Origin: Gammaproteobacteria bacterium
Lineage (GTDB): Bacteria > Pseudomonadota > Gammaproteobacteria > UBA4575
Direction: 5' to 3'
Assembly: GCA_965222615.1 (NCBI GenBank)
Contig: CBDCUI010000007.1
Location: 313,080-377,079 of the forward strand
Length of the DNA stretch: 64,000 nucleotides
The position numbers were made by a program, and so were the translations under genes. Below the pieces are notes generated by a model. That model was not told where the DNA came from, searched no databases, and worked only from the letters and a program-made list of their open reading frames with translations. Shown one piece after another: positions 4,244 through 55,043 of this stretch (positions are counted from its first letter, which is position 1; the number at the start of each line of letters is the position of its first letter).

Positions 4244-4251
4244 GTTGAATC

Positions 4252-5628: not shown

Positions 5629-5632
5629 TACC

Positions 5633-28436: not shown

Positions 28437-29633
28437 TCAACCTTTCACGCAAACTACTTGTCTCAATGTATGTTCAACACTTACCAAGTCATTTTGGTTT
28501 TCCATAACCACGTCAATATCTTTGTATGCGCCAGGGATTTCATCTAATACACCTTTGTCTTTACGACATTCAACACCCGCAGTTTGCGCCTCGATATCTT
28601 CTTCATTGAAATGGCGTTTTGCTTTACCACGACTCATACGACGACCTGCGCCGTGCGAACATGAACTAAATGATTCAGGGTTACCTTTACCACGAACAAT
28701 ATAAGATTTAGCACCCATACTTCCTGGAATAATTCCAAGCTCATCCACGCCAGCACGGATCGCTCCTTTTCGCGTAATGTAAACATTTTCACCAAAGTGA
28801 TTTTCCATAGACACATAATTGTGATGACAATTGATGGCTTCTTTAGTGATGCCAAATTTTGGTAAAACTTTTTTTAACGCATCAATGATTAAGCGCATCA
28901 TTTCTTTACGATTTTCCATTGCGTAATCTTGAGCCCAGTTCACTGCATTTACGTAATCATCAAAGTGCTCAGCACCTTCAGTGAAATACGCTAAATCTTT
29001 ATCAGGTAAATTATGAATATGCTTTTGCATATCTTGTTGTGCTAATCGAATAAAGTATTGACCAATAATATTCCCTACTCCACGGCTACCCGAATGAAGC
29101 ATAATCCATACATCATTATTTTCATCCAAACAGATTTCAATAAAATGATTCCCCCCTCCAAGTGTGCCCAATTGGCGCACCCAAGTTTGATAAGGCTTTT
29201 TCTGCATCTTTAAAAGTTTAGGATGTTTATCTAGTAAGCGATCTAAACCGTCAGATAAAGGTCGTATAGTAGAATTCTTAGCTTTATCAGTCTTGTGCAT
29301 ATCAAAACCAACAGGAATTGCGTCTTCAATTGCAGTACGCACTTTACGTAAATTATCTGGAAGATCATCTGCATTGATTGAAAGGCGTAACGCATTCATG
29401 CCACAACCGATGTCTACACCAACTGCAGCTGGAATGATTGCACCTTTACACGGAATTACAGAACCCACAGTCGCACCTTTACCAAAGTGTACATCCGGCA
29501 TCGCCGCTATATGACTATGGATAAAGGGCAACTGTGAAAGGTTGCATAGTTGTTGGTAGGCTTCGTGCTCAATGTCATCTGTATAGATTTTTACGCGCAC
29601 TTTACCTTTGGTAATCACTTTCTTTATTGGCAT
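28437..29633 (-). CDS. rtcB: RNA-splicing ligase RtcB (3'-phosphate/5'-hydroxyl RNA ligase)
   Basis: Near-colinear match to RtcB landmarks: MPDVHFGKGATVGSVIP, AVGVDIGCGMNA, GNHFIE, HNY and CSHGAGR. Confidence 0.9.
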   Translation of the reverse strand: MPIKKVITKGKVRVKIYTDDIEHEAYQQLCNLSQLPFIHSHIAAMPDVHFGKGATVGSVIPCKGAIIPAAVGVDIGCGMNALRLSINADDLPDNLRKVRTAIEDAIPVGFDMHKTDKAKNSTIRPLSDGLDRLLDKHPKLLKMQKKPYQTWVRQLGTLGGGNHFIEICLDENNDVWIMLHSGSRGVGNIIGQYFIRLAQQDMQKHIHNLPDKDLAYFTEGAEHFDDYVNAVNWAQDYAMENRKEMMRLIIDALKKVLPKFGITKEAINCHHNYVSMENHFGENVYITRKGAIRAGVDELGIIPGSMGAKSYIVRGKGNPESFSSCSHGAGRRMSRGKAKRHFNEEDIEAQTAGVECRKDKGVLDEIPGAYKDIDVVMENQNDLVSVEHTLRQVVCVKG

Positions 29634-29670
29634 ATGTCACCCAAATCAGTCCCTATAATATTCATTTCTA

Positions 29671-29847
29671 TTAGAACCATCGTGTCGCTTGTTCTTCAAG
29701 CAACAATTCTTGAAATCTACGCCCTGATCCACATACACACAGATCATTACGGCCGAGCTTCTCGATAAGTTCTTTATTGCCATGAACGACTCTATTTCCT
29801 CGTTTAACGTTTGTTTCTGATGGATATCCCTTGCGACGTTTACTCAT
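29671..29847 (-). CDS. Small SEC-C motif protein (58 aa) immediately upstream of rtcB. Not in the ORF track because it is under 60 aa.
   Basis: Hand translation of the reverse strand gives [58 protein letters not shown]. NDLCxCGSGxxFKxCC is the SecA/YchJ-type zinc ribbon. Confidence 0.5.
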
Positions 29848-29909
29848 ACGCTCAAAAGGATTGGTCCTTATCTTTAAATTTACACATGTTGCACCTCCGT
29901 TTTATTGAG

Positions 29910-31352
29910 CTAAACATAACTCACTATATTTAAGTTTTCTTTCAATGCCCAGCGTTGAAATATATCTTTCTCAGAATCAGTTGGTAAGCGATTATACTTT
30001 CCTCTTGCTTGGCAAATTTGTTTGTTATACATATTTACTTCTATCGTTAACATCTTTGTGATTCCAATCTTATTCTGTAGATCCATGGTGTAAATTGCAC
30101 TTTTCCCCTTGTGGCAAGAATTTGCATAACTTGCAACACAATGACCTTGCTTACGACCTTCAGCAACAAGTTCCTTACTAGATAGTAGCTCTCTTATTGT
30201 CCAAACTTTCATATTTCTATTCTTGCTATTCCCTTCAACGTACCTAAAATCATTAATACCAGACTTTTTCCATTGCAAGTTTCCACCACGGGATTCTCTA
30301 CCGAGTTGTTGATGCCACTGCTCAACTTGTCTTAATAATGTTTCAGCTGTTCTACCTCGCATGGAAAAATTAGGTTGTGCAGGTCCGATTTCTCTAGCCA
30401 CGCCTCGCTCAACAAACTCAACTCTATTTTCATATTTTTGATTCCAAATATAATCCACAATTGGGTTTACATGGCTCAAATCCAACATTGGGTTTTCGAT
30501 AAAAAACTGTATAACTCTTTGCCAAAATTCTTCATCTTTAAATCTTGTATTCAGTCGCGTTCCATTAATTGCATTGGCAATTGCAACATTTCCACCTAAT
30601 GCTTTCACTTGTGCCCAACGAAATGCTCCTAACACACTATATGAAGTAGGCGCCTGTATAAAATGATGGGCCATTTTCTTAGTCAGTCTAATAGGTAAAG
30701 AATGAGCCGTTCTAATATTGTGTCCTTTACCTATATGCATGAACCATTTTTGCTGTTTTTTGTTTCCCTGTAACCAAACATAATCCATAAATTCTGGTAC
30801 ATAATAATTCGCGAACAAGTGTCTAGCTAACGATGAAAACTGGCGAACTGCATTATATGTAGAAGGCTCCCATACATATAAATCACGTAACCACTTGGTT
30901 CGATATAATGTGAAATTTATAATCCCTCGCACAAAATCTACCGAACTAAAAAGCTTTGTTCTTTCCTCCAGGTATAGCAAGGCTTTTAATAGCTGTTTTT
31001 TCTCTTTTGATATACGAAACCCTTCGTATACAATTTGTAGAACTTTACTATTAATTTCATTTAGAGGTAGTTTATTATCAAAAATTAATTCAATCTGATA
31101 TCTTATCTTCCCCTCTTTACTATGCTTCTTAAGCTTTTCTTCCGCTAATATTTCTTTATATTTCTCTATCTCCTTATAACGTTGAGAATATTTCTTATCT
31201 AGTTTTGAACTGAAACCATTCGCTTTACACCATTTTTTATATTCGGCTATGTCTTTCAAATTTAGGGCACGAGCATGCATCAAGACCTCTAACTCTAAGT
31301 CCTGATCAATCGTTTTCAATTTTTTATTTTTTCGTGCCATATCAATATTCAA
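29910..31352 (-). CDS. Hypothetical protein, possibly PcfJ-like
   Basis: Lys/Glu-rich N-terminal coiled coil. C-terminal ...KQGHCVASYANSC... resembles the HCV-containing core of PcfJ-like proteins from memory only. Confidence 0.3.
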   Translation of the reverse strand: MNIDMARKNKKLKTIDQDLELEVLMHARALNLKDIAEYKKWCKANGFSSKLDKKYSQRYKEIEKYKEILAEEKLKKHSKEGKIRYQIELIFDNKLPLNEINSKVLQIVYEGFRISKEKKQLLKALLYLEERTKLFSSVDFVRGIINFTLYRTKWLRDLYVWEPSTYNAVRQFSSLARHLFANYYVPEFMDYVWLQGNKKQQKWFMHIGKGHNIRTAHSLPIRLTKKMAHHFIQAPTSYSVLGAFRWAQVKALGGNVAIANAINGTRLNTRFKDEEFWQRVIQFFIENPMLDLSHVNPIVDYIWNQKYENRVEFVERGVAREIGPAQPNFSMRGRTAETLLRQVEQWHQQLGRESRGGNLQWKKSGINDFRYVEGNSKNRNMKVWTIRELLSSKELVAEGRKQGHCVASYANSCHKGKSAIYTMDLQNKIGITKMLTIEVNMYNKQICQARGKYNRLPTDSEKDIFQRWALKENLNIVSYV

Positions 31353-31426
31353 TTAAATTTAGCTAATTCCATTTAAATGACGCAGGCCCTCTAGTAATAA
31401 AGGACCTTTGTCAGTTTATTTTCACG

Positions 31427-38519: not shown

Positions 38520-38834
38520 TTACTTTATTGCGATAGCTTTAGCGATATCTTTTCTACTCGCACCCAATGCAATGAGTGATTTCATGTAGTGATCGAGGGA
38601 TACAGATGGATCACCGGCTTCTAGTTTTGCAATTCGTGATTGACTCGATTGTATGATTGTAGCCACTTTCGTTTGGCTTAATTTTTTACGTTTGCGTATT
38701 GCTTTAAATGTATTCGCCAAATTAAGTCTCATTTCGACAATCTCAGCCTCTTCCGGAGTCAGATCCAGAAATTCTTGGGCACTACCAAACTTCCAGCCTT
38801 TGGTTTCAAGTTTTTTGCGTTTCGCTTTATTCAC
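38520..38834 (-). CDS. higA: HigA-like antitoxin (XRE-family HTH)
   Basis: HTH ...KLSQTKVATIIQSSQSRIAKLEAG. 8-nt overlap with the upstream toxin gene. Confidence 0.65.
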   Translation of the reverse strand: MNKAKRKKLETKGWKFGSAQEFLDLTPEEAEIVEMRLNLANTFKAIRKRKKLSQTKVATIIQSSQSRIAKLEAGDPSVSLDHYMKSLIALGASRKDIAKAIAIK

Positions 38835-39171
38835 TGTCGTATTCCTTGATTCGCTGCTTACATATTTCTTTTACTGTTTTCGGTGTTCGTCTCGTTTTCT
38901 TTTCAAATACCTCGAGTATGACGATCGCATCTGTATCGATTCTATACATTATTCTCCATGTCAATGTTTCATCCACTATGCGTAACTCATGACAACGCCG
39001 ACCTATGATAGGCATCGGCCTTGAGTGGGGCAATGAGAGTTTTTCACCTTGTTGCAGCTTGCGCAGTAAAAAACCTGCTTCAATACGTGCACTTTGTGAA
39101 AAAGGTGGTGTTTTGATTTCACCACTTAGCCATGCTAGTAGCTTATCTCTCGGCGACATCTTTGACTCCAA
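38827..39171 (-). CDS. higB: HigB-like type II toxin (COG4679/Gp49-like RelE superfamily)
   Basis: ...RCHELRIVDETLTWRIMYRIDTDAIVILEVFEKKTRRTP matches the consensus of HigB/Gp49-like toxins. Confidence 0.65.
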   Translation of the reverse strand: MESKMSPRDKLLAWLSGEIKTPPFSQSARIEAGFLLRKLQQGEKLSLPHSRPMPIIGRRCHELRIVDETLTWRIMYRIDTDAIVILEVFEKKTRRTPKTVKEICKQRIKEYDSE

Positions 39172-39286
39172 GCCTATATCATATTGATGATTATGTCAAT
39201 TCTGACATATTATTATTCGTAACTTACTGTAATTAAATAGGGTTATCAGTGCAATTTCCAACCTAAATATAGCCTTAATCTAATAC

Positions 39287-39691
39287 TCATCTATTACTTA
39301 TATCATTAGCGCTATTAAGACCTATATTTATAAGCGAGCATACAATTTGTTCGTACAATTCCTGACCTTTATTTGTGATCTGTATAACTCTGGCTCGGCG
39401 ATCATTTTCAACAAAGTTATATTCCATTAAATGTAGATCTTCCAAGCAACGCATTGAACGGGTGAGTTGGGGTTTGTTTAGTACCGCTTCTTTTGCGATG
39501 ACCCCAGGCTGAACAAATTTTTGATACAAGTAATGTAGCACTTCAAAATCGATATGCGAGAGCTGGTACACTTTTATACTGTTTTTAATCTGTCTTTGAT
39601 ATGCCCTTACTTTTTTCAAGATTGCGAAATAGTCTTCTAGCTCCAATAGTTCTTCGTCAGCTATAAACTTATTCATAGTCTGTCTACCCAA
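39287..39691 (-). CDS. MarR family transcriptional regulator
   Basis: Winged helix ...LTRSMRCLEDLHLMEYNFVENDRRARVIQITNKGQELY. Confidence 0.7.
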   Translation of the reverse strand: MGRQTMNKFIADEELLELEDYFAILKKVRAYQRQIKNSIKVYQLSHIDFEVLHYLYQKFVQPGVIAKEAVLNKPQLTRSMRCLEDLHLMEYNFVENDRRARVIQITNKGQELYEQIVCSLINIGLNSANDISNR

Positions 39692-39802
39692 GCCAATGCT
39701 TTATTTAAATATTGTGCCCAAAGATGATTATTTACTTCTATCACACATTTATGATCTACAGATCATAACAATATCAGCTCATCTTTACCACAATTACGCT
39801 CT

Positions 39803-40075
39803 ATGGAGCGTATGACTTTAAAGAGGAAAATTCAGCAGGATTTTGGGAAAGCTCTGCTTAAACACAGAAGCAAAGCCAAGATGACATTTGAAACGCTTGC
39901 GGATAGAGCCAATTTGTCTATGCGCTATGTACAAGACTTAGAGGCTGGCAAGAAACTACCATCGATCATCACATTAATGAAACTATGCCATGCTTTGAAA
40001 ATTACACCTGATAAGTTACTGATGCCAATTTTTAGGCAAAATAAGAAACAAATTTTGGAAAAGGATAACGACTGA
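39803..40075 (+). CDS. XRE family HTH transcriptional regulator
   Basis: MTFETLADRANLSMRYVQDLEAGKKLPSIITLMKLCHALKITPDKLL. Confidence 0.7.
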   Translation: MERMTLKRKIQQDFGKALLKHRSKAKMTFETLADRANLSMRYVQDLEAGKKLPSIITLMKLCHALKITPDKLLMPIFRQNKKQILEKDND

Positions 40076-40252: not shown

Positions 40253-40299
40253 TGGTGGCCAGGGGCGGAATCGAACCACCGACACGAGGATTTTCAGTA
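40253..40299 (-). repeat. attL: 47-nt direct repeat identical to the 3' end of tRNA-Phe (54968-55014), marking the left end of the island
   Basis: tggtggccaggggcggaatcgaaccaccgacacgaggattttcagt is identical at both positions. Only the right copy continues as a full tRNA. Confidence 0.8.
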
Positions 40300-40455: not shown

Positions 40456-43400
40456 CTATACTTGCTCAGCGCTTAATTCAAATTCTGAATTAATTAATTC
40501 AAGTATTTTTTCCAGAAACTGCCCTTCTTGTGGTGATATCGCAAGTCTTAGATATGGTGGTATATATTCTAAGAATTCTGACTTATTAATTGGGCGATAT
40601 TCTAATAATGCCTCAAGCATGGCTGGTCGGAGAAGACGTTTATTTTCAGGTGTGTCCGGTAGTGTTTTACGGATTACTTTTTGGTCAAATTCAATAAGCT
40701 TATCTTTCAATTGCACGCTTTCTGTTACAAATTCATTGCTCTCTTCTTGCCAAATTTCAATTTCATCAATAGTTTCTTCTTCTACAGATTCAGCCGGAAT
40801 TTCGCTAACAACTGGTAGATCAGTTTTTAGTTCATGCAGTTCTCGAATAATTGGTTGAATTTCAGCGCGTGGGTTCCTGAACCAGTCAGTGGACCAAATA
40901 CGTCGTATCCTCCACCCAAGTTGTTCCAATATATCCTGACGAATTCGATCACGATCTCGAACAGACTTTGCAGAGTGATAAGTTGCGCCATCACATTCAA
41001 TACCCATTAAGTATCTTCCAGGATTACCTGGATCTACAATTGCAATGTCGATAAAAAACCCTGCCACACCCACCTGAGGTACACACTCAAAACCTTCGTC
41101 TCGTAATGCATCGGCTACTGCTATTTCAAAATCACTGTCCGGGTCACGACCCGATTTTTCACTGCCTTTCTGAAGAATGCCCGTCTCACAAAAAGCAAGA
41201 AAATCCCTAAGTGCTTTTACTCCGAGTTTTGAACTAGTATCTACAACAATATCGTCAGAACCCATAGAACTAATCACAAGCATCCGCCTTCGAGATCGTG
41301 TAAAGAGTACATTCAACCTACGCCAACCAACGTTTGAATTAATTGGCCCAAATCGCTGAAAAACTTTTCCTCGCGGCTCTTGAGGCCCATATGTCATGGA
41401 TATAATTATTACATCACGTTCATCGCCTTGTACGTTCTCAAGATTCTTTACAAAAAGTGATTCTTGATTAGTTTGATCTTTCTCCAACCATTCTTGAAAA
41501 GAAATATCATCTTTTGCGAGACTTTCTATAGCACTTTCTATTTGGTCTCGTTGCTCCACATTCATAGCAACTACACCTATAGTTTCATCAGATCCTTTAC
41601 TAAAATGCTCACGAACTTTATTAGCTATAACTTTTGCCTCCTCTAGGTTACGTCGGTTTACAAAACATCCACGTCGGACACGTGTAAAACTTATGCCTAA
41701 TCGTTCTAAATCTTTGTGAGGAGAAGGGAACAGAATTAGATTACTGTCGTAGAAATAATGATTAGAAAAAGCAATAAGACTTTCATGCTTCGATCTGTAA
41801 TGCCATCTTAACCTTCGTGCAGAAAACATTGGGCGTGTAGCATCTAAAATGCTTTCAGATTCTTCTATTGCTGAAGGATCTTCATCATCATCTTCAATAA
41901 CTCGGTCAAAAAAACTTGTCGGCGGTAATTGCTTAGGGTCTCCAACAACAACTAGTTGTTTTCCACGAGCAATAGCCCCTAAAGCATCTTCGGGTTTGAT
42001 CTGTGATGCTTCATCCATCACAATCAAATCAAATTCTATTTGGCCAGGTGCTAAATATTGTGCTACTGACATTGGACCCATCATAAAACATGGCTTAAGT
42101 GCAGAAAGTGCTGTCCCTGCACGTCTGAGTAACTGTCTAATAGGTATATGTCTTTTTTGTTTTCCACATTCATGTTCGAGCAATGCAAACTCTGTGTAGT
42201 CACTAACTCGTCCACCAAAACTTCCTTGTGGTACATGGGCTTTATCTGCTTCCCATGCAATATTTTCACTTTGTAATTTCTTAAGACGATCATCGTATTC
42301 TTTAAACTGGCGTTGTAAAGACTCTTGCGCTCGTCCTGAAAATCGGCCAAGTTCTGGTTCTGCCCGTAGAATTTCACGTGCTAATAAATCGAAAATTCCT
42401 GCATAAAAAGCCACCTCCGCCATTGATGCTGAAATTTCCCCTTTTTCAATTGTTTCAGCCAATTTATTGAGACCAATTGGATTGAGTTGTTGACGTATTC
42501 GTACATAATCAAGCCAGTCCTGTAGCGTTACGCGTTGTTCTAGTGCAATGGAGTTGCGCTCTATCAACATTGCTACATCAATTCCACATGTGGACAACCA
42601 TTTGTTTTTATCTAATAACACTAACTCTTCAAATTTAGAGTTTGTTAGATTTAGTGTTTTTAGAATGTCTTTAATCTTTTTGCCTTGCTTACGTAATGAG
42701 TTAATCGTTGACGGTTCAGGTTTTTCATATATCCGATCTACAATAATTTGTTTTTTTATTTTATTTGTTATGCAATTGGCAATATCTAAAGTGTTTTTGG
42801 AAATGCTAAGTGCTGTATTGTTATTTGTATTCGCACCTATTTGTAAACCCAGGCGGCCTCTGAAAAATCGGTTATCATAATCGGCTTTTTCCCATCTACT
42901 GACGGTCCTATGCAGTGAATCAAGGGCCGTAATCTGGTTCATAAATTCTGTAAGCGATATGTTTTCATCTGTAATTAGTGACTTGCATTCTTTAATTGCT
43001 ACAGATATTTTATTTTTTAGTTTGACTAATAGATCACCGTCGCCCACTAGTAGAGTTTTAGAATCTTGCAGTGCCGTAACGGGAGCAAATAGAACTTTTA
43101 ATTGCTTGAGTTCACTTAATATATCGTCTAATTTTTTACAAATTCCTTGTTCTGAAAGAGACCGAATTGCTTTACTTAGATCAGGCGGTAAACCTATTGC
43201 TGCATCACCAAGCGCAATTTTTGGGCCGAATCCTACACCATATGTTTGGCGAACTTGTCTATACCATTCCCTAACTGTTTCTAACGAACCTATATCTGTA
43301 TCCAAACCTCTGGAATGGTCCCCCAAAAGCGATTTGTAAGTTGAATTGTTTTTAAGTTTATGAAGTTGATCTGAATATGTTACAGAGTCATTTAATGCTG

Positions 43401-45924
43401 CGATTAAATCTTTAAACTTGACATCCGTATTTGCTGACTGGCTAATTATTTGTTTTCTTGTCTTTCGCCAAGTAGGTTTAAACCATCGCAAAATACCACT
43501 AGATGATACAATTTGTTGATACTCTTTTTGAGTATCTTTATCTGGTATTCGTTTTACATCATAAACTTTTGACAATTTTTCTTGCTGTTGGTGTAAATTT
43601 TCAATTTCTTTACGAATTTTAGGAAGTGCATCATCAAGTTCATCATTATCAAAAAGTTCATTGCGATTCTTCCATTCTGAAGGGGGTAGTGACGATACAA
43701 GTTCGATAAATGTTTTTATTTCATGCAATCCAGACTCAGATAGATTTAAAAAATCTACTGCTGATTTGCCGATTTTAGTTTGAAGTTCTGAAACAAAGTC
43801 CTGAAGTTGTACTAATTGATCATGTACTCTCGTTAGTCGTTGTGTTGCTTGATCAATTTCACCTAATTTTACAGTACCATCTATAAATTGAACCAAGCTA
43901 CTTCCACCTTTTAAATATTTGCCAACTAATGAAAGGTTTTCAATCGCTTCAGTGCTAACCCTTTTAGACAGAATACGGTAAAGAGTTTGGATACTTTCAA
44001 ATTGTTTTATGTATTTTTTTACCTTGCTCAGCCTTTCTCCTTTAAGTAAATGCAATGTGTCGAGCAGTTCGTTACCTTTTAAATCTGGTAATTGTTCAAG
44101 TTCTAGTGCTATTTCTTCATAATCAGTAATAGTTTTTGGCCCTGACGATGGTTCGCAATTAAGTGTTTCTATTAGTTCAATCTCTAAATTTTTTAATTGA
44201 ATTAATGAACTCTGCCAGTCCTCAAGTGCAATAATTACCTTGTCAATGTCAAAGACTTGCAAGTCAATGTTTCTTACTCCATACCAAGGGTGCTGACTTA
44301 GCGAAATACCGTTACCTAACCGTTCTTCTACAGTTTTAAAAGCATCACTAAATGCTATGACCTGATCTCTTGCTCGTCGCTGCATATCTGCATCAAAGTT
44401 TTCACCTGAATATCCGTCTGGGTGCAAGTATTCTGGGTTGATCTTAAGAAGCTCTCTATATCGAGTTGCAGCCATGAATATTTCATGCTTCGTTTTTCCA
44501 GTTTCTTTCCATGTCTGATTAATGCGTTGAACATGCGTTTTTAGTGAATTTTTTAGATCTTCAAATCGACTTATATCTGCAGCAATTTCTGCCGGTTTTC
44601 GGTAATGGCCCTTTTTATTTATTCTTTCGGAAACATCATTGAGTAATTTTCTTTTTTGAGTTTTATGACTATGTAATTCAAGACAAAATTCACCAAGTCC
44701 CGCAGAATCGAGACGGCGCTTTACTATATTTAGTGCCGCAAGTTTTTCAGCCACAAATAAGACTTTTTTCCCCTGAATTAAAGCCGCACCAATTAGATTA
44801 GTAATAGTTTGTGACTTACCTGTTCCAGGTGGACCTTCTATAACTAAATTTTCACCTTCAACAACATCAATTAATGCACTATGTTGAGAACTGTCTGCAT
44901 CGTAAATTAAAGGATACTTTGTATGAATTTCTGGTAATTCATCAATTGAGTGTTCTTCACCAAAACCAAGATCTATATTTTTATTTTCTGGTAGCTCATC
45001 TACCCCATATCCTGTTAAAAAGCGGGATATTATTGGATGACTTGTGATTCCTTGTTCTTTCGGCCAACGAATAGGATCTAAATCTAGATACATAAGTAAC
45101 TTGCTAAAATTAAGTAATGAAAGAGTTATATACCTTCTTAACTTCCAACGTGGATGACTTTTACAAATTACAGATTCAACTTCTTCAAAGTAAGTTTCTG
45201 GTTGAGTGTTTTCATCGAGTTCAGGCAAAGCTAATGAAAAATCAATCCTCAATTTTTCGCGTAAAGATAAATTCGGGATGATATCTTCATCAGAATAACT
45301 AAGGCTATACTCGTAAGTCCCCAAGACAGCATTTAATTTACCTTTTTGTAACCGAACGGGTACTAAAAATAACGGCGCCAGTCGTGAGTTAGTACTATTG
45401 GGGCTATCGAACCATTCTAAGAATCCAAATACTAAATAGAGCATGTTTGCTCCTGTTTCCTCAATAGCAGTTCTTGAAGTTTGGTGTAATCGTCGTAACC
45501 GTGCTTCTAATTCATAAGGAAATAAAAGTGTTTGAATAGCCATATCAGTATGCTTGCTGACTTCATGGCTATTCTCTGGAACTGGTACATCAAATGATGT
45601 TTCTAGATTTAAATGTTTTGCCCATTCTTCTGCACTTGGGTCTTTTTTGAGACGGTGTTCTTCTCCTGTAACATCATCAATTTCAATATATCCTGCATCA
45701 ACAAGTTCCTGTAGAGTAGGTTCAGAAACAGGTATAAAACGCATTTCTTTATCCGCTAAAAGAGTCTCGACTAATTGGTTTGGTAATTCATCTATTACAC
45801 GTAAACATGAACTCTTAGTGTGGCGGAAATTGATAAGTCTATTGCGTCCCGTAAGATCAAGTAATCGATCTCGAAGATTCTTTAGTACATCAATCGCTGA
45901 ATTATGACTAACTACTTCACCCAT
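40456..45924 (-). CDS. 1822-aa DUF4011 / Upf1-like SF1 helicase (AAA_11/AAA_12) / Vsr-DUF559-like endonuclease / DUF3320 protein (HheA-like defence protein)
   Basis: Walker A VIEGPPGTGKSQT. Walker B and motif III IVMDEASQ...VVGDPKQLPP. Motif VI RLNVLFTRSRRRMLV. C-terminal DGATYHS...RDRDR...LGWRIRRIWSTDW is a Vsr/DUF559 fold. Terminal segment LRPAMLEALLEYRP resembles DUF3320. Confidence 0.75.
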   Translation of the reverse strand: MGEVVSHNSAIDVLKNLRDRLLDLTGRNRLINFRHTKSSCLRVIDELPNQLVETLLADKEMRFIPVSEPTLQELVDAGYIEIDDVTGEEHRLKKDPSAEEWAKHLNLETSFDVPVPENSHEVSKHTDMAIQTLLFPYELEARLRRLHQTSRTAIEETGANMLYLVFGFLEWFDSPNSTNSRLAPLFLVPVRLQKGKLNAVLGTYEYSLSYSDEDIIPNLSLREKLRIDFSLALPELDENTQPETYFEEVESVICKSHPRWKLRRYITLSLLNFSKLLMYLDLDPIRWPKEQGITSHPIISRFLTGYGVDELPENKNIDLGFGEEHSIDELPEIHTKYPLIYDADSSQHSALIDVVEGENLVIEGPPGTGKSQTITNLIGAALIQGKKVLFVAEKLAALNIVKRRLDSAGLGEFCLELHSHKTQKRKLLNDVSERINKKGHYRKPAEIAADISRFEDLKNSLKTHVQRINQTWKETGKTKHEIFMAATRYRELLKINPEYLHPDGYSGENFDADMQRRARDQVIAFSDAFKTVEERLGNGISLSQHPWYGVRNIDLQVFDIDKVIIALEDWQSSLIQLKNLEIELIETLNCEPSSGPKTITDYEEIALELEQLPDLKGNELLDTLHLLKGERLSKVKKYIKQFESIQTLYRILSKRVSTEAIENLSLVGKYLKGGSSLVQFIDGTVKLGEIDQATQRLTRVHDQLVQLQDFVSELQTKIGKSAVDFLNLSESGLHEIKTFIELVSSLPPSEWKNRNELFDNDELDDALPKIRKEIENLHQQQEKLSKVYDVKRIPDKDTQKEYQQIVSSSGILRWFKPTWRKTRKQIISQSANTDVKFKDLIAALNDSVTYSDQLHKLKNNSTYKSLLGDHSRGLDTDIGSLETVREWYRQVRQTYGVGFGPKIALGDAAIGLPPDLSKAIRSLSEQGICKKLDDILSELKQLKVLFAPVTALQDSKTLLVGDGDLLVKLKNKISVAIKECKSLITDENISLTEFMNQITALDSLHRTVSRWEKADYDNRFFRGRLGLQIGANTNNNTALSISKNTLDIANCITNKIKKQIIVDRIYEKPEPSTINSLRKQGKKIKDILKTLNLTNSKFEELVLLDKNKWLSTCGIDVAMLIERNSIALEQRVTLQDWLDYVRIRQQLNPIGLNKLAETIEKGEISASMAEVAFYAGIFDLLAREILRAEPELGRFSGRAQESLQRQFKEYDDRLKKLQSENIAWEADKAHVPQGSFGGRVSDYTEFALLEHECGKQKRHIPIRQLLRRAGTALSALKPCFMMGPMSVAQYLAPGQIEFDLIVMDEASQIKPEDALGAIARGKQLVVVGDPKQLPPTSFFDRVIEDDDEDPSAIEESESILDATRPMFSARRLRWHYRSKHESLIAFSNHYFYDSNLILFPSPHKDLERLGISFTRVRRGCFVNRRNLEEAKVIANKVREHFSKGSDETIGVVAMNVEQRDQIESAIESLAKDDISFQEWLEKDQTNQESLFVKNLENVQGDERDVIIISMTYGPQEPRGKVFQRFGPINSNVGWRRLNVLFTRSRRRMLVISSMGSDDIVVDTSSKLGVKALRDFLAFCETGILQKGSEKSGRDPDSDFEIAVADALRDEGFECVPQVGVAGFFIDIAIVDPGNPGRYLMGIECDGATYHSAKSVRDRDRIRQDILEQLGWRIRRIWSTDWFRNPRAEIQPIIRELHELKTDLPVVSEIPAESVEEETIDEIEIWQEESNEFVTESVQLKDKLIEFDQKVIRKTLPDTPENKRLLRPAMLEALLEYRPINKSEFLEYIPPYLRLAISPQEGQFLEKILELINSEFELSAEQV

Positions 45925-46380
45925 ATAAATTTGGCCTAATTTAGACTGGATGAATTAACATGTTTTTTTGAAGATGTTTAGAATCATCTTCACCCCCCAA
46001 CTGCTAGATAAATTATTATTTAGTTAATTTTCTCTCTATATTTTTCCTTTAAGTGTGAATTGGATCAGACATATTGACATTCCTCAATACACAGACATGA
46101 AAATACTTGGTTACTTTGTTTAATTTTTCGCCACTCCCACTGTTTTACCCTCTCTTTCTCTGGTAACTTCCAAATTCCTGCTCGATTTCCGTTCGCCACG
46201 TGTTCAAATGTATGTAAGCGGCTACTCATTGCATATTTTGGATGACATACTCGTAACCGCAACGAACAAGTACGCCATTGACCCATAACTCACCAAGATA
46301 TACATGTTTTGAGCTTATGATTAGAGAGCTTTTTTGTAAAATTTGCATAAGAAATAAGTCATTTACATTAGATATACACA

Positions 46381-49300
46381 ATGAAGATACGCAATAAGAA
46401 TATATCCCTTGCACCTACAGATCTTAGTAATTTTCATAGCTGCCATCATCTTACCTATCTTGATACAAAAAATGCTAAAGGTCTTATAGAACGCCCTAGT
46501 CGTTATGGACCACTATTAGATGAGCTTAAGGCACGCGGAATTGCTCATGAACAAAAATATTTCGAGCATTTAAAATCACAGGGACTATCGTTTGTTCAGA
46601 TTAACAATTCTGATTCAGATAATTTTTCCAAAGAAACTGCGCTTGAGGAAACAATAGCTGCAATGAGAAATGGTATCGACGTAATATATCAAGCAACTTT
46701 GTTGGACAATACTTGGCTGGGACGGGCAGATTTTCTCCACAAAGTTGAGTCATCTAGTAAATTTGGGAACTGGTCATACGAAGTCGTCGATACTAAGCTC
46801 GCACGTGATACCAAGGCAGGTACTATTCTTCAACTATGTGTTTACTCTTATTTACTTTCCAAGCTTCAGGGAACTCGTCCAGAATTCATGTGCGTTGTTA
46901 CACCGGGGAGTGATTTTATCCCATTGAAGTATCGTGTGGATGATTATGGCGCGTATTTTCGTTTCGCTGAAAATAACATTACCGATTTTATAGAATCTGA
47001 AGAGGATACTTATCCAGAGCTTGTTCCCCACTGTGACCTTTGTACATGGTGGAGTGAATGCGAAAAACGGCGTCGAGGTGATGACCATCTTTGTTACGTA
47101 GCTGGGATTAGGGGTTCTCAAATAAAAAGTCTTCGCTCATTAGGTATAGAACGGCTTGCAGATTTAGCGCATCTAGAAAATATTCCTGAAACGCCTCATG
47201 GATCCAGAGAAGCACTTACACGTGTTCGTGACCAAGCTAAAGTTCAATTTATTGGAAGAGATAAGAGTGGTTCATATTATGAATTTATCGAACCTTTCAA
47301 TAGTGAACATGGACTTGCGATGTTACCGGAACCAACACAAGATGATATTTTCTTGGACTTTGAGGGAAGCCATTTTGTTGAACAAGGAGTTCAGGAATAT
47401 CTAACAGGATTTTTAACTCTCGATCCTGATGGAAATCAAAATTATACGGCGCTATGGGCACGAACTCTTGAAGAGGAATGTCGGTCATTTGAAGAGTTTA
47501 TCGATATTGCGATTGACGCATGTATGCGTAATCAAAATGCACATATTTATCATTTTGCTTCCTATGAACCAACGGCACTAAAAAGATTAATGGGTCGATT
47601 TGCAACTAGAGGGGAAGAGCTAGATGATTTATTAAGAAGAGAAGCATTTGTTGATTTATATACCATTGTCAAACGTACTCTAATAGCAAGCGTTGAACGC
47701 TACTCAATTAAAGATCTAGAGCCCTTCTTTGGTTATTCACGTAGTCAAGATTTAGCAGAAGCAACAATGAGCCGGCGAATTGTTGAGAATATTATCGAAT
47801 CTGGTGATATCGATGATGCTAATCAAAAACATTTTCAAATTGTTGAGAGCTACAACCGTGAGGATTGCGAATCTGCGAAACGTCTTAGGGATTGGCTTGA
47901 GAAGTTGCGTGAAGAAGTGATTTCTAATGGGCACGTACTGCCAAGACCAGATATTAAAACTGGTGATGCTTCGGAAGAGATAAGTGAACTTGATAGTGAA
48001 TTGCAACGACTTCGAGATGGACTTTTGCAAGAAGTTCCAATGGAACCTGAAGACCGTTCTGATGAGCAGCAGGCACGTTTCACTCTCGCGCATATGATGG
48101 AATTTCATCGCCGAGAAGATAAGGCTGCTTGGTGGGAATATTTTCGAGTACTTGATTTAGACCAAAGTGATTACGTGGACGAACGTCGCGCCTTAATAAA
48201 TCTAAAGTTTGAAAAAGTTGTTGATGCAAAGCGCGCACCGCTGCAGCGCTACAGTTTTGTTCCGCAAGAGCTTGATGTACGCAGAAATGATGATGTTTAC
48301 GATAGTGAGGGTAATAAGGTCGGAAAAGTAACTGATGTTAATTATTCAGCGAGAACAATTGATATTAAGAAAATGATTGCCACAGCGGATGAGCACCCTA
48401 ATAGTGTGGTTTTTCATAACCAAGTATCATCAAAAGCACTTCGAGAGTCGCTGATGCGATTTGGTGAATCTGTCTTAGAGCAAGGTTTCAACGGTCAGTT
48501 ACCATATTCGTCTGGTTTAGAACTATTACTTTGTAACTCTTCACCATTGGCTGGGGATAACGGTTCTTTGCAACAAGTCAATGAAAGTACATTAGATGCG
48601 GCGTGTAGATTGGCACTAAATTTAGATCATCATGTACTTGCTATTCAGGGTCCGCCAGGAACCGGCAAAACTTACACTGGAGCACATATTATTTGTGTGC
48701 TGATACAGCAGGGTCTGAAAGTGGGGGTTACAGCTGTTAGTCATAAAGTCATCGAAAATTTGCTTGAAGGTGCAATGGAAGAAGCACATAAACAAGGAAT
48801 TAATCTTCAAGGCGTGCATCGCCAAGACGGAGAGTATCAAGGTAATTGGAATATTGAACGCAAAAAAGATTACAGAACTATAAGACGACAGCTCGACGAT
48901 GGAAGTATAGACGTTCTTGGTGCAACTGCATGGTGCTGGGTAAGAGAAGAATTTGAACAAAGTGTTGATGTTCTAATCGTAGATGAGGCTGGACAAATGT
49001 CATTGAGTAATGTTTTGGCTGCATCGCCGGGAAGTAAAGGTTTAGTGTTGCTAGGTGACCCACAACAACTTGAGCAACCATTGCAGAGTAGTCATCCAGA
49101 GGGAAGTGAAGTATCTGCTCTTTATTACTTGCTTGACGGAGAAGATACAATGCCCGCGGATAAAGGCTTATTTCTAAATGAAACTTTCCGACTTCATCCA
49201 TCCATTTGCCAATTTACATCCGAAGTTTATTATGAGAAGCGCTTGATTGCGCAGCCTGATCTCATTAATCAGGAAATTATCTTTTTGTTAGATAAAACAA

Positions 49301-49818
49301 GTAGGATTTCAGGGTCGGGTCTACGTTATGTGCCTGTAGTACATACAGGAAATCAGGCTCGATCGCTTGAAGAAGTCGCAGTTATTTCCGAAATTGTTAA
49401 GGACCTCCTTGAAGGAGGTTCATGGAAGGATAAGGAGCACAATGTTACAACTTTGACCGAACAAGATATCCTTATTGTTGCACCATATAACTCTCAGGTA
49501 GCAGCATTGATTGAAGCACTTCCTATGTTGCAAAATCGAATTGGAACTGTAGATCGTTTTCAAGGACAGGAAGCAGCTCTTGTATTATATTCAATGACAT
49601 CCTCAAGCGCAGAAGATGCTCCACGAGGAATGGAGTTTCTTTATGATCGGCACCGATTCAATGTTGCGACTTCTCGTGCTAGAGCTTTATGTATATTGGT
49701 CGGTAGTCCTGCTCTATTTGATCCAGACTGCAAAACACCACGCCAAATGCGTAGGGTTAACGGGTTCTGTCGTTACATGGAGATGACTAAAAAAATTAGT
49801 ATGTGTGACAGTTTTTGA
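46381..49818 (+). CDS. 1145-aa Dna2-like nuclease-helicase: Cas4/RecB-like PD-(D/E)xK Fe-S nuclease (TM0106-type), RNaseH-like domain and SF1B Upf1/DNA2-like helicase
   Basis: N-terminal Cys ligands (FHSCHH...CDLCTWWSEC, a CX2CX5C cluster) and the D-x-K motif YEVVDTKLARDTK. Central DIFLDFEG... RNaseH-like segment. Helicase motifs GPPGTGKT, VLIVDEAGQ, GDPQQL, TVDRFQGQE and NVATSRAR. Confidence 0.75.
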   Translation: MKIRNKNISLAPTDLSNFHSCHHLTYLDTKNAKGLIERPSRYGPLLDELKARGIAHEQKYFEHLKSQGLSFVQINNSDSDNFSKETALEETIAAMRNGIDVIYQATLLDNTWLGRADFLHKVESSSKFGNWSYEVVDTKLARDTKAGTILQLCVYSYLLSKLQGTRPEFMCVVTPGSDFIPLKYRVDDYGAYFRFAENNITDFIESEEDTYPELVPHCDLCTWWSECEKRRRGDDHLCYVAGIRGSQIKSLRSLGIERLADLAHLENIPETPHGSREALTRVRDQAKVQFIGRDKSGSYYEFIEPFNSEHGLAMLPEPTQDDIFLDFEGSHFVEQGVQEYLTGFLTLDPDGNQNYTALWARTLEEECRSFEEFIDIAIDACMRNQNAHIYHFASYEPTALKRLMGRFATRGEELDDLLRREAFVDLYTIVKRTLIASVERYSIKDLEPFFGYSRSQDLAEATMSRRIVENIIESGDIDDANQKHFQIVESYNREDCESAKRLRDWLEKLREEVISNGHVLPRPDIKTGDASEEISELDSELQRLRDGLLQEVPMEPEDRSDEQQARFTLAHMMEFHRREDKAAWWEYFRVLDLDQSDYVDERRALINLKFEKVVDAKRAPLQRYSFVPQELDVRRNDDVYDSEGNKVGKVTDVNYSARTIDIKKMIATADEHPNSVVFHNQVSSKALRESLMRFGESVLEQGFNGQLPYSSGLELLLCNSSPLAGDNGSLQQVNESTLDAACRLALNLDHHVLAIQGPPGTGKTYTGAHIICVLIQQGLKVGVTAVSHKVIENLLEGAMEEAHKQGINLQGVHRQDGEYQGNWNIERKKDYRTIRRQLDDGSIDVLGATAWCWVREEFEQSVDVLIVDEAGQMSLSNVLAASPGSKGLVLLGDPQQLEQPLQSSHPEGSEVSALYYLLDGEDTMPADKGLFLNETFRLHPSICQFTSEVYYEKRLIAQPDLINQEIIFLLDKTSRISGSGLRYVPVVHTGNQARSLEEVAVISEIVKDLLEGGSWKDKEHNVTTLTEQDILIVAPYNSQVAALIEALPMLQNRIGTVDRFQGQEAALVLYSMTSSSAEDAPRGMEFLYDRHRFNVATSRARALCILVGSPALFDPDCKTPRQMRRVNGFCRYMEMTKKISMCDSF

Positions 49819-50287: not shown

Positions 50288-50476
50288 ATAGCAGTGCTGA
50301 ATTTATATTTCTAGATACAATTGTACACCTACTAAAGAAGACCGCGACGGCGCCCCGCCGCGGCTTCTCCCGTTGTCAGCCTTACGGCTGGCCCGTGCCC
50401 TAGGGAATTTTATTTAAACACCAATAATTTTATTTGAGCATATTTAAACACTGCGTATTAGTGGATCGATTAAACC

Positions 50477-51343
50477 TTACCTACCAAGATAAACACTTAT
50501 TATTTGGATGCGTTCGTGGCCTAGCTCTCGACTGATCTGCTGTCTTGCTAATTGGTCTTTTATTAATTGTTTGAGGTTCAACTCTTTAGCTTTTGGCCCA
50601 CCCGCGGCTGGAGACTTCCAGCTTGTTAGCTCAAAATATCGATTTTGTGCATATCGGTGCCTCAACCCATGTACCTTACTAAGCCCTATATATAAGGTAT
50701 GTCGCTCATATGACTTAAGTTGCTGGATATATGATTTGTTTGGAGGTATCAAGGAACCCTTTCCAACCAATTGATGAGAAATGGCAATTGCCATTTTTTG
50801 AGATTCGGTTCGTATAGGAATTGCCCTTTCTTTTCCTCCCTTTGTCCAGCTACTTTTTAGAACGAGTTGATTCTTACGATCGGCCCAATGAGGTTGAATC
50901 TTTATAGCTTCTTCTCTCCTGAGACCAAATTCCCGTTGCAACAAAAGACTAGCCCGCACCCATGGGTCTTTAACTAAATTTAGTTGCTCGTAACTTACAT
51001 TGATTGCTTTTGATTCATTGTTTAGATAGTTTCGGTTCGGGATACTATAGAAAGAATTATCCTTTGCAATTACAGAACCACGATTAACTTTTTCTGCCCA
51101 CCATCTCAGTGCGGCCATCCTATTTTTGATGGTACCTGTACTGATATCTTGTTCTTGCCAGATTTGAATTAGTCTATATACATGTCTTCCTTTTAGTTGT
51201 TGGGCATGTAGTTTTTTATAACCCGCTTCATGGAGCTGGTTGGCAATCAGATTTAAGATCTTTATTCGATTGGCCTGGGTGGCATAACTTCCATCGCGGT
51301 TTCTCCTACAAAGTTGTTTAAGTTCATAATTAAGATCCCTCAT
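50477..51343 (-). CDS. Tyrosine recombinase/integrase-family protein (catalytic domain only)
   Basis: R (FGLRREEA), K (KGGKER), HxxR (HGLRHRYA) and terminal Y (ISVYLGR). Confidence 0.6.
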   Translation of the reverse strand: MRDLNYELKQLCRRNRDGSYATQANRIKILNLIANQLHEAGYKKLHAQQLKGRHVYRLIQIWQEQDISTGTIKNRMAALRWWAEKVNRGSVIAKDNSFYSIPNRNYLNNESKAINVSYEQLNLVKDPWVRASLLLQREFGLRREEAIKIQPHWADRKNQLVLKSSWTKGGKERAIPIRTESQKMAIAISHQLVGKGSLIPPNKSYIQQLKSYERHTLYIGLSKVHGLRHRYAQNRYFELTSWKSPAAGGPKAKELNLKQLIKDQLARQQISRELGHERIQIISVYLGR

Positions 51344-52750: not shown

Positions 52751-53320
52751 CTAGTTATCATTTTGAGTTGATGTCGTTGGAGGTTTATATTTTTCGGGTC
52801 TTGTTGTTATTAAATATTTAGTCTTCGTATCTTCTATTTTAAATGGCATTCTACAATTTTCTAAATGTGGAATTTTAATAGATCCTGTTTTATGAGCATA
52901 TTGTCCTAATTCCTTACTATGTCTAAACCCAGGTGGACTGATAAGCTTAATTTTTCGTTTTTTACTTAATCCATTGATTACTTGTAGCGCAGGTGCAAAG
53001 TCACTGTCTTGACTAACTATGAATGCTTCATCGAAATTATCGTTATAAGCTTCTCTAATCATAGTAACTGCAATATTTACATCGGTTTGCTTTTCTTCAT
53101 GTGAAATCCATGTAGTTCCGCATGTCTTACAGCCACTTGATTTTTCTTTGAATGACCCCAATATTACTTTTACACCACATGCTTCTTGTGCTCTTATAAA
53201 TTTTTTATGCCTTTTGGCTGGGTTAATTAGCCATTCAGCTATAGCGGTAAAATAGTAGACATCAACAAGTTTATGGTTAGCAGGATTTGTAAAGGTTTCC
53301 ATTAACCTCCACATATCCAC
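52751..53320 (-). CDS. NYN/LabA-like domain protein (PIN-like RNase fold)
   Basis: ...NIAVTMIREAYNDNFDEAFIVSQDSDFAPALQV... matches the NYN domain acidic-residue pattern. Confidence 0.6.
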   Translation of the reverse strand: MDMWRLMETFTNPANHKLVDVYYFTAIAEWLINPAKRHKKFIRAQEACGVKVILGSFKEKSSGCKTCGTTWISHEEKQTDVNIAVTMIREAYNDNFDEAFIVSQDSDFAPALQVINGLSKKRKIKLISPPGFRHSKELGQYAHKTGSIKIPHLENCRMPFKIEDTKTKYLITTRPEKYKPPTTSTQNDN

Positions 53321-53838: not shown

Positions 53839-54882
53839 TCACTGAATATTAAGTTGATCTAACTTCGAAACTAAATCTTCAGCTCGAAGGTGTGTATATC
53901 GTTTCAACATCTGCATGCTTTTATGTCCGCTAATGGCAGCGACTTCTTGATCCCCTAATCCGGCTTCAACTAAACGGCTAATTGCTTCATGCCTGAGGTC
54001 ATGAAATCTTAAGTCATGTAATTTAGCTTTTGCTATAGCTTTTCTCCATGCGGGACGATATTGATATGGGCGACGTTTCCCATCTTTACCTGGCTCACCA
54101 TAAAAAACTAAATTTGTATCAAACGGTCTAATTTTTTCGCTTAAAACTTCATTTAAAACAGATACTGCTACTTTATTAAGTGGCACTGTTCTTGAATTAC
54201 CATTCTTTGTATCAGACAACCTAATAACCCTTTTCTTTAAATCAATTTGGTTACGCTCAAGGCTTTGAATTTCACCTGCGCGCATTCCAGTTGATAATGC
54301 TAAACGAGTCATCCAACCAAGTTTTGGATTTCTTTTGTTATTACACACTTCTAGTAGTTTCTTTTCCTCATCAACTGACAGTCGCCGATCTCTTCCTTTA
54401 CTTGGTGAAGGTTTTCTAATGTTAAGAACTGGATTAAATGAAACTCCCAATCCCCATTCTTGTATTGCAACAGTATATAGGTGTGAAAGCAGTGCCAACT
54501 CTAGTCGTACTGTATCTGGTGATTTTCTGAGTTTTAATCGATTATCACGGTATTCAGCAATTTTTTGTGCAGTTAATGATGCAAGAGAATAATTTCCCAA
54601 CTTTTCAATAAGTCTATCTGCTCTTCTTTTTTCTGCTGTTTGCGTAGTTTGCTTTTTTGTAACAGTTACTTCTAAAAGATATCGTTGCAATGCATTCTGT
54701 AAAGTTGTTCGTTCTGCAGGCGCTCGATTTAAATAAACACCTCTCACCATTTCATCTTCGATACTTCGAGACCAGTCTTCAGCATCGCGCTTTGTACGAA
54801 ATGTTTTTGAAGCAGTAGGCCAGCCTTGTTTTCTAACCAAAGCTTTCCACTTATTAGATGAAGTTTTTACGAAGGTTGCCAA
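53839..54882 (-). CDS. int: Tyrosine-type site-specific integrase
   Basis: ...RLSVDEEKKL..., ...HDLRHEAISRLVEAGLGD..., ...GHKSMQMLKRYTHL. Lies adjacent to tRNA-Phe. Confidence 0.85.
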   Translation of the reverse strand: MATFVKTSSNKWKALVRKQGWPTASKTFRTKRDAEDWSRSIEDEMVRGVYLNRAPAERTTLQNALQRYLLEVTVTKKQTTQTAEKRRADRLIEKLGNYSLASLTAQKIAEYRDNRLKLRKSPDTVRLELALLSHLYTVAIQEWGLGVSFNPVLNIRKPSPSKGRDRRLSVDEEKKLLEVCNNKRNPKLGWMTRLALSTGMRAGEIQSLERNQIDLKKRVIRLSDTKNGNSRTVPLNKVAVSVLNEVLSEKIRPFDTNLVFYGEPGKDGKRRPYQYRPAWRKAIAKAKLHDLRFHDLRHEAISRLVEAGLGDQEVAAISGHKSMQMLKRYTHLRAEDLVSKLDQLNIQ

Positions 54883-54967: not shown

Positions 54968-55043
54968 TGGTGGCCAGGGGCGGAATCGAACCACCGACAC
55001 GAGGATTTTCAGTCCACTGCTCTACCAACTGAGCTACCTGGCC
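54968..55043 (-). tRNA. tRNA-Phe(GAA), integration target (attR)
   Basis: The reverse complement reads GGCCAGGTAGCTCAGTTGGTAGAGCAGTGGACTGAAAATCCTCGTGTCGGTGGTTCGATTCCGCCCCTGGCCACCA, which closely matches E. coli tRNA-Phe. Confidence 0.9.

Follow-up and report, generated by a model that had tools for sequence, protein, structure and literature searches.

Two large genes in a tRNA-Phe island

The window analysed here is a stretch of 64,000 nucleotides (nt) from a gammaproteobacterial contig (CBDCUI010000007.1). It carries a mobile island of 14.7 kb, which is integrated in a tRNA-Phe gene and bounded by an integrase and direct repeats. Two very large open reading frames (ORFs), transcribed divergently and called ORF A and ORF B, together occupy about 60% of the island. 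ORF A encodes Hhe, a known single-gene anti-phage protein, and ORF B a nuclease-helicase of the TM0106 family. An earlier note on this DNA, made from the sequence alone, had proposed the pair as a two-gene system against phages and plasmids. We favor a different reading, to which we give a probability of roughly 55%: the island is a stack of independent nucleic-acid-targeting defence genes, not one two-component system, and ORF B is a candidate single-protein defence. The borders and the defence-type genes of the island are as follows (aa, amino acids).

40253-40298, minus strand: distal attachment repeat of 46 nt, identical to the 3' part of tRNA-Phe at 54968-55013
40456-45924, minus strand: ORF A, Hhe, 1822 aa (NCBIfam NF042953, PADLOC Hhe, Pfam domains, motifs)
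46381-49818, plus strand: ORF B, TM0106/COG2251-family nuclease-helicase, 1145 aa (TIGR03491, Pfam, AlphaFold2 and Foldseek)
52751-53320, minus strand: HEC-09-like NYN-domain protein, 189 aa (PADLOC HEC-09, 4.5e-37; Pfam NYN, 8e-12)
53839-54882, minus strand: tyrosine integrase of the island, adjoining tRNA-Phe (Pfam Phage_integrase, 2e-34, and Int_N)
54968-55013, minus strand: proximal attachment repeat, the 3' 46 nt of tRNA-Phe (exact repeat)
54968-55043, minus strand: tRNA-Phe (GAA), the integration target (ARAGORN; Rfam tRNA, 68 bits)

The earlier note had placed both ORFs in an integrase-bounded tRNA-Phe island, and the exact 46-nt repeats with the tyrosine integrase beside the tRNA gene bore this out. 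A 33-nt repeat pattern that was searched for gave no copies in 100 shuffles of the window. Both ORFs were found with the coordinates, strands and lengths that it gave, and every motif quoted for them was located in the translations. ORFs of such length that match protein families from end to end could hardly arise by chance. The GC content at third codon positions is 0.22-0.28 for the island genes, compared with 0.30-0.36 for the chromosomal genes of the window that were measured. To the right of the island lie mutY and a yggX-like gene, judged by their translated sequence, and they look like chromosomal flank.

The product of the NYN gene covers positions 32-201 of the 203 of the PADLOC HEC-09 model, which is near full length, and the gene is a third defence-type cargo gene of the island. 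In published tests, the HEC-09 candidate, an NYN RNase, gave no protection (10.1101/2024.01.29.577857).

ORF A is an Hhe protein

The Hhe architecture, which the earlier note had named for ORF A, was recovered by model searches. ORF A scored 2509 bits against the NCBIfam equivalog NF042953 (DUF4011 domain-containing anti-phage protein Hhe; cut-off 2000), with an alignment running end to end from aa 14-1811 of the protein to positions 2-1797 of the 1797 of the model. The score against the PADLOC Hhe model was 1782 bits, whereas the paralogous ProA model gave 1151 bits, under its own cut-off of 1500. Because of the end-to-end match above the NF042953 cut-off, the ProA score below its cut-off and the PADLOC Hhe match, ORF A is a genuine Hhe, an already described single-gene system.

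The domains agree with this assignment. DUF4011 (aa 20-225, 2e-40), a superfamily 1 (SF1) helicase (AAA_11/AAA_12) and a Vsr-like endonuclease (the MTES_1575 restriction-endonuclease fold, aa 1599-1696, 2e-37) are joined in one chain, in the same order as in Hhe. These three were already in the description of the earlier note; of its two other assignments, DUF559 gave a weak Pfam match (0.005), and DUF3320 gave none at the C-terminus at E ≤ 0.01. The helicase is split, with an insert of about 930 aa between the Walker A motif (VIEGPPGTGKSQT, aa 361) and DEASQ (aa 1304), and a further helicase motif, RLNVLFTRSRRR, is found at aa 1536. The endonuclease motifs are DGATYHS (aa 1645), RDRDR (aa 1656) and WRIRRIW (aa 1671). 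Among solved structures, none was closer to ORF A than generic SF1 helicases. The protein shares only 44% identity with the hhe products of Klebsiella plasmids, and no metagenomic relative was found that exceeds 60%.

It has been reported that hhe, which encodes both helicase and nuclease domains, is sufficient as a single gene for anti-phage defence, that its candidate triggers are class II DNA-metabolism genes of T7, and that a Bas63 gene is toxic only when hhe is present (10.1101/2024.10.10.617714). Hhe being known already, ORF A adds nothing new by itself.

ORF B is a member of the TM0106 family

TIGR03491, the TM0106 family of RecB-like putative nucleases, matched ORF B over aa 13-506 with 235.5 bits (cut-off 97.45). 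Pfam placed RNase_H_2 (PF13482) at aa 323-506 (6e-17) and AAA_11/AAA_12 at about aa 740-1110. The protein is divided as follows.

About aa 10-240: Cas4-like PD-(D/E)xK nuclease with a four-Cys cluster
aa 323-506: 3'-5' exonuclease fold (PF13482)
About aa 510-740: helical and beta-barrel linker
aa 740-1110: superfamily 1B (SF1B) helicase of the Upf1/Dna2 type

The order of Cas4-like nuclease, RNase-H-fold exonuclease and SF1B helicase, and the likeness to Dna2, had been read from the letters in the earlier note and are supported by TIGR03491, Pfam and Foldseek. Its "RNaseH-like" domain does have the RNase H fold, but it is not an RNase H proper: the PF13482/COG2251 group is classified with the PolB-type 3'-5' exonucleases, and it is often joined to a DUF83-like nuclease and tandem AAA domains, according to a survey of the RNase H-like superfamily (PMC3985635). 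With its Cas4-like N-terminus and PF13482 domain, ORF B is a full-length member of the uncharacterised TM0106/COG2251/TIGR03491 family.

The Cys cluster consists of Cys21 and C218-x2-C221-x5-C227, and the helicase motifs are GPPGTGKT (757), DEAGQ (868), GDPQQL (892), QGQE (1061) and ATSRAR (1096). Conservation was assessed in an alignment of 25 homologs from many phyla, in which the mean column identity across phyla was 71%. All four cysteines were invariant, as were D117, K139, Q151 and Y155 of the PD-(D/E)xK and QxxxY motifs, while D137 was kept in at least 90% of the homologs. The DxE...YxxxD exonuclease signature (D326, E328, Y491 and D495) was invariant as well. The Walker A and DEAGQ motifs did not vary, and all helicase motifs were kept, invariant or nearly so. 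By these conserved nuclease, exonuclease and four-Cys residues, ORF B is predicted to be an active enzyme.

The AlphaFold2 model of ORF B had a pLDDT (predicted local distance difference test) of 76 and a pTM (predicted template modelling score) of 0.56, and the iron-sulphur (Fe-S) region was poorly modelled. Its best full-length Foldseek match was Dna2 (5EAN, E 9e-25), with an overall template modelling score (TM-score) of 0.34, and the helicase half matched Upf1, IGHMBP2 and Sen1. The nearest helicase relatives by sequence were Upf1, DNA2, IGHMBP2 and Sen1.

The family is large, with more than 3000 sequence clusters. Relatives with the architecture of ORF B, about 1140 aa long, number in the thousands, and those 60-69% identical to ORF B come from Gammaproteobacteria, Binatia, Trueperaceae, Longimicrobiales, Rhodothermaceae and Chloroflexi. 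Literature searches on TM0106, COG2251 and PF13482 returned superfamily surveys and no paper about the family, and searches linking Dna2-like proteins with Cas4, phage or defence returned nothing.

Comparison of ORF B with known nuclease-helicases

No full-length defence model was found for ORF B. NCBIfam gave TIGR03491 only, and PADLOC v2 gave partial helicase matches to MkoA, MkoC and DpdJ and weak matches to Cas4. The best of these, to MkoA of Mokosh, had 143 bits and covered model positions 769-1099 of 1112. It is restricted to the C-terminal half with the Upf1-like helicase, and ORF B has no phospholipase D (PLD) nuclease. Mokosh, either as MkoA with a PLD partner or as the MkoC fusion, was rejected on these grounds.

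Eukaryotic Dna2 (PDB 5EAN) shares with ORF B the order of an N-terminal Fe-S PD-(D/E)xK nuclease and a C-terminal SF1B helicase, and the two helicases are related in sequence. However, ORF B differs by a PolB-like 3'-5' exonuclease domain that lies between nuclease and helicase, sequence similarity is limited to the helicase, and the TM-score of the fold is low. Dna2 is also essential in replication and repair, whereas ORF B is accessory and horizontally mobile. ORF B was rejected as a Dna2 orthologue, since the helicase alone can be aligned, the TM-score is 0.34 and an exonuclease domain has been added; the likeness is at the level of architecture only.

Like ORF B, the staphylococcal protein Nhi combines an N-terminal PD-(D/E)xK nuclease with an SF1B helicase in one polypeptide; its distribution is patchy, and it is carried on plasmids and located near defence genes (10.1101/776245). 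Nhi lacks the Fe-S Cas4-like domain and the exonuclease domain, both of which are present in ORF B. The Nhi helicase belongs to DUF2075 (now PF09848), which scored 18.3 bits on ORF B against a cut-off of 24. ORF B was not accepted as an Nhi because PF09848 was below cut-off and no Nhi-named model was among its nine PADLOC matches, a negative limited by the fact that the presence of an Nhi model in PADLOC v2 is unconfirmed. The END nucleases are unrelated.

Hhe and ORF B do not form a conserved pair

Co-occurrence was counted from both sides. On the ORF B side, 80 loci of relatives 44-69% identical were taken from species-representative genomes. On the Hhe side, 80 metagenomic loci with 41-62% identity were used, with 644 kb of flank in total (at least 1 kb upstream in 50 and at least 1 kb downstream in 55). 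None of the 80 Hhe loci had an ORF B relative in these flanks. Only two of the 80 ORF B loci (L068 and L023) had a gene of the Hhe superfamily, the other 78 having none, and both genes were ProA and not Hhe. The ProA gene of L068 is frameshifted and convergent to the ORF B relative, with a fragment of an IS21 (insertion sequence) helper gene between them, and that of L023 is about 7 kb away. All-versus-all clustering of the 1248 flanking ORFs of the ORF B loci gave no family in more than five of the 80 loci.

Plasmids gave a similar picture. Hhe was carried on 463 plasmid records, 348 of them from Klebsiella (243) and Ralstonia (105), and ORF B relatives on 72, with neither genus among the ten commonest hosts. 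The neighbours of hhe on plasmid pKP048 are a type I restriction subunit, two DUF262 genes and an IS66 element, with no ORF B among them.

Hence the two genes are not found together in most genomes that carry either of them. The layouts seen were divergent, tandem, convergent and 7 kb apart, with no conserved order or orientation, and the phylogenies of the partners are incongruent. Neither PADLOC v2 nor NCBIfam has a named system that combines Hhe with ORF B, in agreement with the earlier note.

The central proposal of the earlier note, that the two genes are one system, was not supported by these counts. The strongest form of it would have ORF A and ORF B co-regulated from their shared spacer and mutually required. 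The divergent layout with a shared spacer of 456 bp is in its favor, together with one recurrence of that layout with an Hhe-type gene of 1506 aa and one tight tandem pair with a gap of 73 bp, both described below. Against it, Hhe works as a single gene (10.1101/2024.10.10.617714), none of the Hhe loci had ORF B and 78 of the 80 ORF B genome loci had no Hhe-like gene, and order, orientation and partner phylogenies vary among the cases. An obligate conserved two-gene system is ruled out because of the 0/80 Hhe loci, the 2/80 ORF B loci and the non-overlapping main plasmid hosts, and for the pair in the window we consider mutual dependence very improbable.

The spacer contains the following features.

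45925-46380, no strand: divergent intergenic region of 456 bp between ORF A and ORF B
45955-45984: sigma-70-like site facing ORF B, 10/12 matches
46065-46286, minus strand: unsupported ORF of 73 aa, no Pfam or PADLOC match

Promoter-like sites over the island numbered 38, compared with 47.8 expected from shuffles, and are not above chance. An Rfam scan for RNA signals returned tRNAs only. A regulatory signal in the spacer was therefore rejected: promoter-like sites are at chance level, Rfam found nothing but tRNAs and the small ORF had no family match.

A loose association with Hhe near the closest relatives of ORF B

The contigs of the closest relatives of ORF B, with 65-70% identity, were looked up for context. 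An Hhe-type gene was found within 10 kb in about 4 of 16 distinct contexts of this clade, with the window counted. Over all contexts, a gene of the Hhe superfamily was near the ORF B relative in 6 of about 90, and in four of these it was adjacent or nearly so. For a family as rare as the Hhe superfamily, we would have expected fewer cases.

Three of these cases differ in layout. At L168, an Hhe gene in the same orientation (1827 aa; PADLOC, 1655 bits) directly precedes the ORF B relative, 73 bp away. On the Joint Genome Institute (JGI) contig P0013, a 1506-aa AAA_11/AAA_12/MTES_1575 gene is divergent from the ORF B relative with a gap of 297 bp, a layout like that of the window. At L167, the Hhe is 6.9 kb downstream. 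The Hhe proteins themselves are not close to one another: the nearest relatives of the window Hhe are those of L084-L088 (59-60% identity), the L167 Hhe is nearest to L089 (85%), and the L168 Hhe is at most 49% identical to any other. No ORF B was found in the available flanks of those nearest Hhe relatives. A single ancestral pair was rejected, the Hhe partners being polyphyletic. Because the partners come from different lineages, the juxtaposition of Hhe and ORF B arose several times, and the divergent pairing in the window is one of several independent juxtapositions of both families inside defence islands.

Hhe-type genes and AAA_15/OLD-type ATPases each occur in four contexts of the closest clade. 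Such ATPases are far commoner in genomes than Hhe-type genes. The enrichment of Hhe-type genes looks real, on small counts that are uncorrected for phylogeny.

This enrichment raises a second explanation, a facultative synergy, in which separate Hhe-superfamily and ORF B systems have been repeatedly co-selected through shared DNA intermediates. In this scheme, the Vsr-like endonuclease of Hhe would nick or break phage DNA, and ORF B would load at the ends and degrade processively, by analogy with restriction cuts feeding RecBCD. The 6 of about 90 contexts overall and about 4 of 16 within 10 kb in the closest clade speak for it, as does the parity with the AAA_15/OLD-type ATPases. The partners are also diverse (Hhe, ProA, the 1506-aa variant and different Hhe lineages), suggesting that the juxtaposition arose more than once. 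There is a precedent in Druantia III and Zorya II, for which synergy through shared DNA intermediates is reported (PMC13192584). On the other side, the counts are small and carry no phylogenetic correction, each family is mostly found without the other, orientation and spacing are not conserved, and shared residence in defence islands could by itself give the pattern. We hold this explanation as possible but rather unlikely. A broader version, in which the ORF B family is both a widespread single-protein anti-phage and anti-plasmid system and coupled to the Hhe superfamily (Hhe, ProA and PDC-S37-like), seems to us rather doubtful. If it were true, the coupling, with ORF B destroying the ends made by Hhe, would explain the repeated independent placement side by side.

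Genomic context of ORF B relatives

For the closest clade, PADLOC names were confirmed for the scanned proteins, and the other labels are precomputed Pfam matches. Named defence genes flank the ORF B relative in seven of the nine distinct contexts looked up for this clade. The neighbours are SIR2 and HerA at L172, GajA and an HsdR-N protein at L173, Old and TmtA (PADLOC) with weak Pfam matches to BrxB and SIR2 at L174, and HmaC (PADLOC) with DUF1156 at L175. At L169-L171 the neighbours are a DrmD-like HEPN-SNF2 protein (PADLOC), GmrSD_N (Pfam), an AAA_15 ATPase and a sacsin-domain protein. L167 has a retron-type reverse transcriptase in addition to Hhe, and on the P0013 contig a protein with an SRA-McrA domain is near the ORF B relative. 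At L165 the neighbours are defence-type domains only (WYL, a 1533-aa DEAD helicase, AAA_15/21 and DUF3644), and at L164 the ORF B relative lies among TonB receptors with nothing defence-like nearby.

In three contexts (L165-L167 and L169-L171) ORF B is preceded, in conserved order and at about 1-3 kb, by a sigma54-type activator and a gene with an ARPP-1 domain. On the downstream side, the cargo is entirely different in each: AAA_15/21 and DUF3644 in one, the genes from the retron-type reverse transcriptase through Hhe in another, and HEPN-SNF2, sacsin and Metallophos in the third. This suggests that ORF B is retained and serves as the anchor of a variable defence hotspot. Taken together, guilt-by-association of ORF B with defence is good in the closest clade.

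On plasmids, the contexts of ORF B relatives resemble these and include recombinase genes, an integrase fragment, VapBC, SNF2, HNH and DUF2357. Plasmid pCTYH.Ch1_3 of Ensifer (L081) carries at 1657-11378 a tightly packed co-directional trio beside recombinase genes and the integrase fragment: a TM0106 relative together with a helicase-related protein of 1071 aa and a hypothetical protein of 1034 aa. Members of the ORF B family in the distant tier to which L081 belongs may operate within a multi-gene system.

In the 45-53% identity tier, the commonest neighbours were Ku (5/80 loci) and LigD (4/80), at loci among L024, L031, L033, L036, L056 and L065 and at distances of 1.4-9 kb from the ORF B relative, a possible sign that this tier is connected with non-homologous end joining. 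DNA methylase and SNF2, DUF2779 and NERD also recur as neighbours. DUF2779 proteins were found beside ORF B relatives at four loci (L014, L020, L032 and L048); DUF2779 is a sister family that also joins a DUF83-like nuclease to an RNase-H-fold exonuclease (PMC3985635).

These neighbours bring in a third explanation, that ORF B is not a defence gene but an accessory helicase-nuclease for end resection in DNA repair, an analogue of Dna2 working with Ku/LigD or recombination and carried on mobile elements. Ku and LigD are the most recurrent neighbour families, and the Dna2-like fold order, the high sequence conservation and the occurrence of some relatives alone among housekeeping genes are consistent with such a role. 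However, the Ku/LigD cases are confined to the 45-53% tier and to few related lineages (Woeseiaceae-like gammaproteobacteria and Eisenbacteria), whereas the clade of the window lies beside named defence systems in seven of nine contexts. In the window, ORF B shares an integrase island as cargo with Hhe and the HEC-09-like gene, and its distribution is patchy and crosses phyla. We regard a repair role for ORF B as unlikely on this evidence, although, at least for the 45-53% tier, it is a genuine rival.

Probable stacking of independent defence genes and a proposed mechanism

We prefer independent stacking because the broad samples gave co-occurrence of 0/80 and 2/80, ORF B has no conserved neighbour, the Hhe partners are polyphyletic and Hhe acts as a single gene. 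Several observations weigh against this preference. The neighbourhoods of relatives in species-representative genomes are mixed, with defence-type genes and many metabolic genes, and the prominence of Ku and LigD in the 45-53% tier points to repair. The conservation of the family, with a mean column identity of 71% across phyla, is unusually high for a defence gene. Confidence in the structural model of ORF B is no more than moderate (pTM 0.56). Since Hhe-type genes recur near ORF B relatives, the two families are perhaps not fully independent.

The split SF1 motor of Hhe would track along DNA and engage intermediates of phage replication or DNA metabolism, and its Vsr-like MTES_1575 endonuclease would cut DNA once phage DNA metabolism makes the trigger. 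For ORF B, we infer from its domains and its Dna2-like order that the SF1B motor, 5'->3' by family, would move on single-stranded DNA from a free end, and that its two nucleases would divide the degradation, the Fe-S Cas4-like one taking the 5' strand and the PolB-like exonuclease taking the 3' strand. ORF B may then be a one-chain destroyer of foreign DNA that is linear or broken, similar in function to RecBCD, Dna2 or Nhi (10.1101/776245). If the two enzymes do interact, the simplest model would be a hand-off of substrate, in which DNA ends made by the endonuclease pass to the Dna2-like enzyme for degradation.

Other features of the island and its left flank

One more gene of the island and the features to its left are listed below.

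28437-37207: region with an array of tRNA genes and downstream genes for SPFH/Band7, PcfJ-like and RtcB RNA-ligase proteins on the same strand
32897-37207, minus strand: array of 25 tRNA genes, a nearly full set, including a second tRNA-Phe
33194-33760: HNH endonuclease ORF inside the tRNA array
38520-39171: toxin-antitoxin-like pair of a Gp49/HigB-like gene and a helix-turn-helix (HTH) gene
50477-51343, minus strand: second recombinase-like gene in the island (Pfam Phage_int_SAM_2, 2.6e-19, and Integrase_1, 3.4e-11)

The second recombinase-like gene had no PADLOC match, and its GC content at third codon positions is 0.34. Behind this gene, at 50341-50364, lies a strong GC-rich hairpin terminator, and the island may be built of two elements. 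DNA similarity of the island to plasmids was found via the tRNA fragment only. When the other island genes were searched by tblastn against all fetched loci, distant integrases were the only matches, and cargo swapping on one backbone was not shown.

The region of the tRNA array looks like a mobile module for tRNA supply and RNA repair, and it is perhaps a counter to anticodon nucleases. There was no near match to the array in the phage collection searched. Between the array and the island (37689-40075), two further HTH proteins and a SarA/MarR-like regulator accompany the Gp49/HigB-like pair. A Gp49 and HTH pair, unrelated to this one, also follows the Hhe-ORF B tandem at L168.

Implications

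ORF B is the useful part of this island: it belongs to a large multi-phylum family, carried on plasmids and islands, that has no known function and is a candidate for testing. If ORF B protects alone, it would add a new family to the one-protein nuclease-helicase immune systems and would represent a bacterial Dna2 counterpart that was recruited to defence. The repeated independent adjacency to Hhe provides a concrete pair for the study of co-selection among genes that share DNA intermediates. The Ku/LigD neighbourhoods make the family a candidate for a repair enzyme exapted to immunity, or the reverse.

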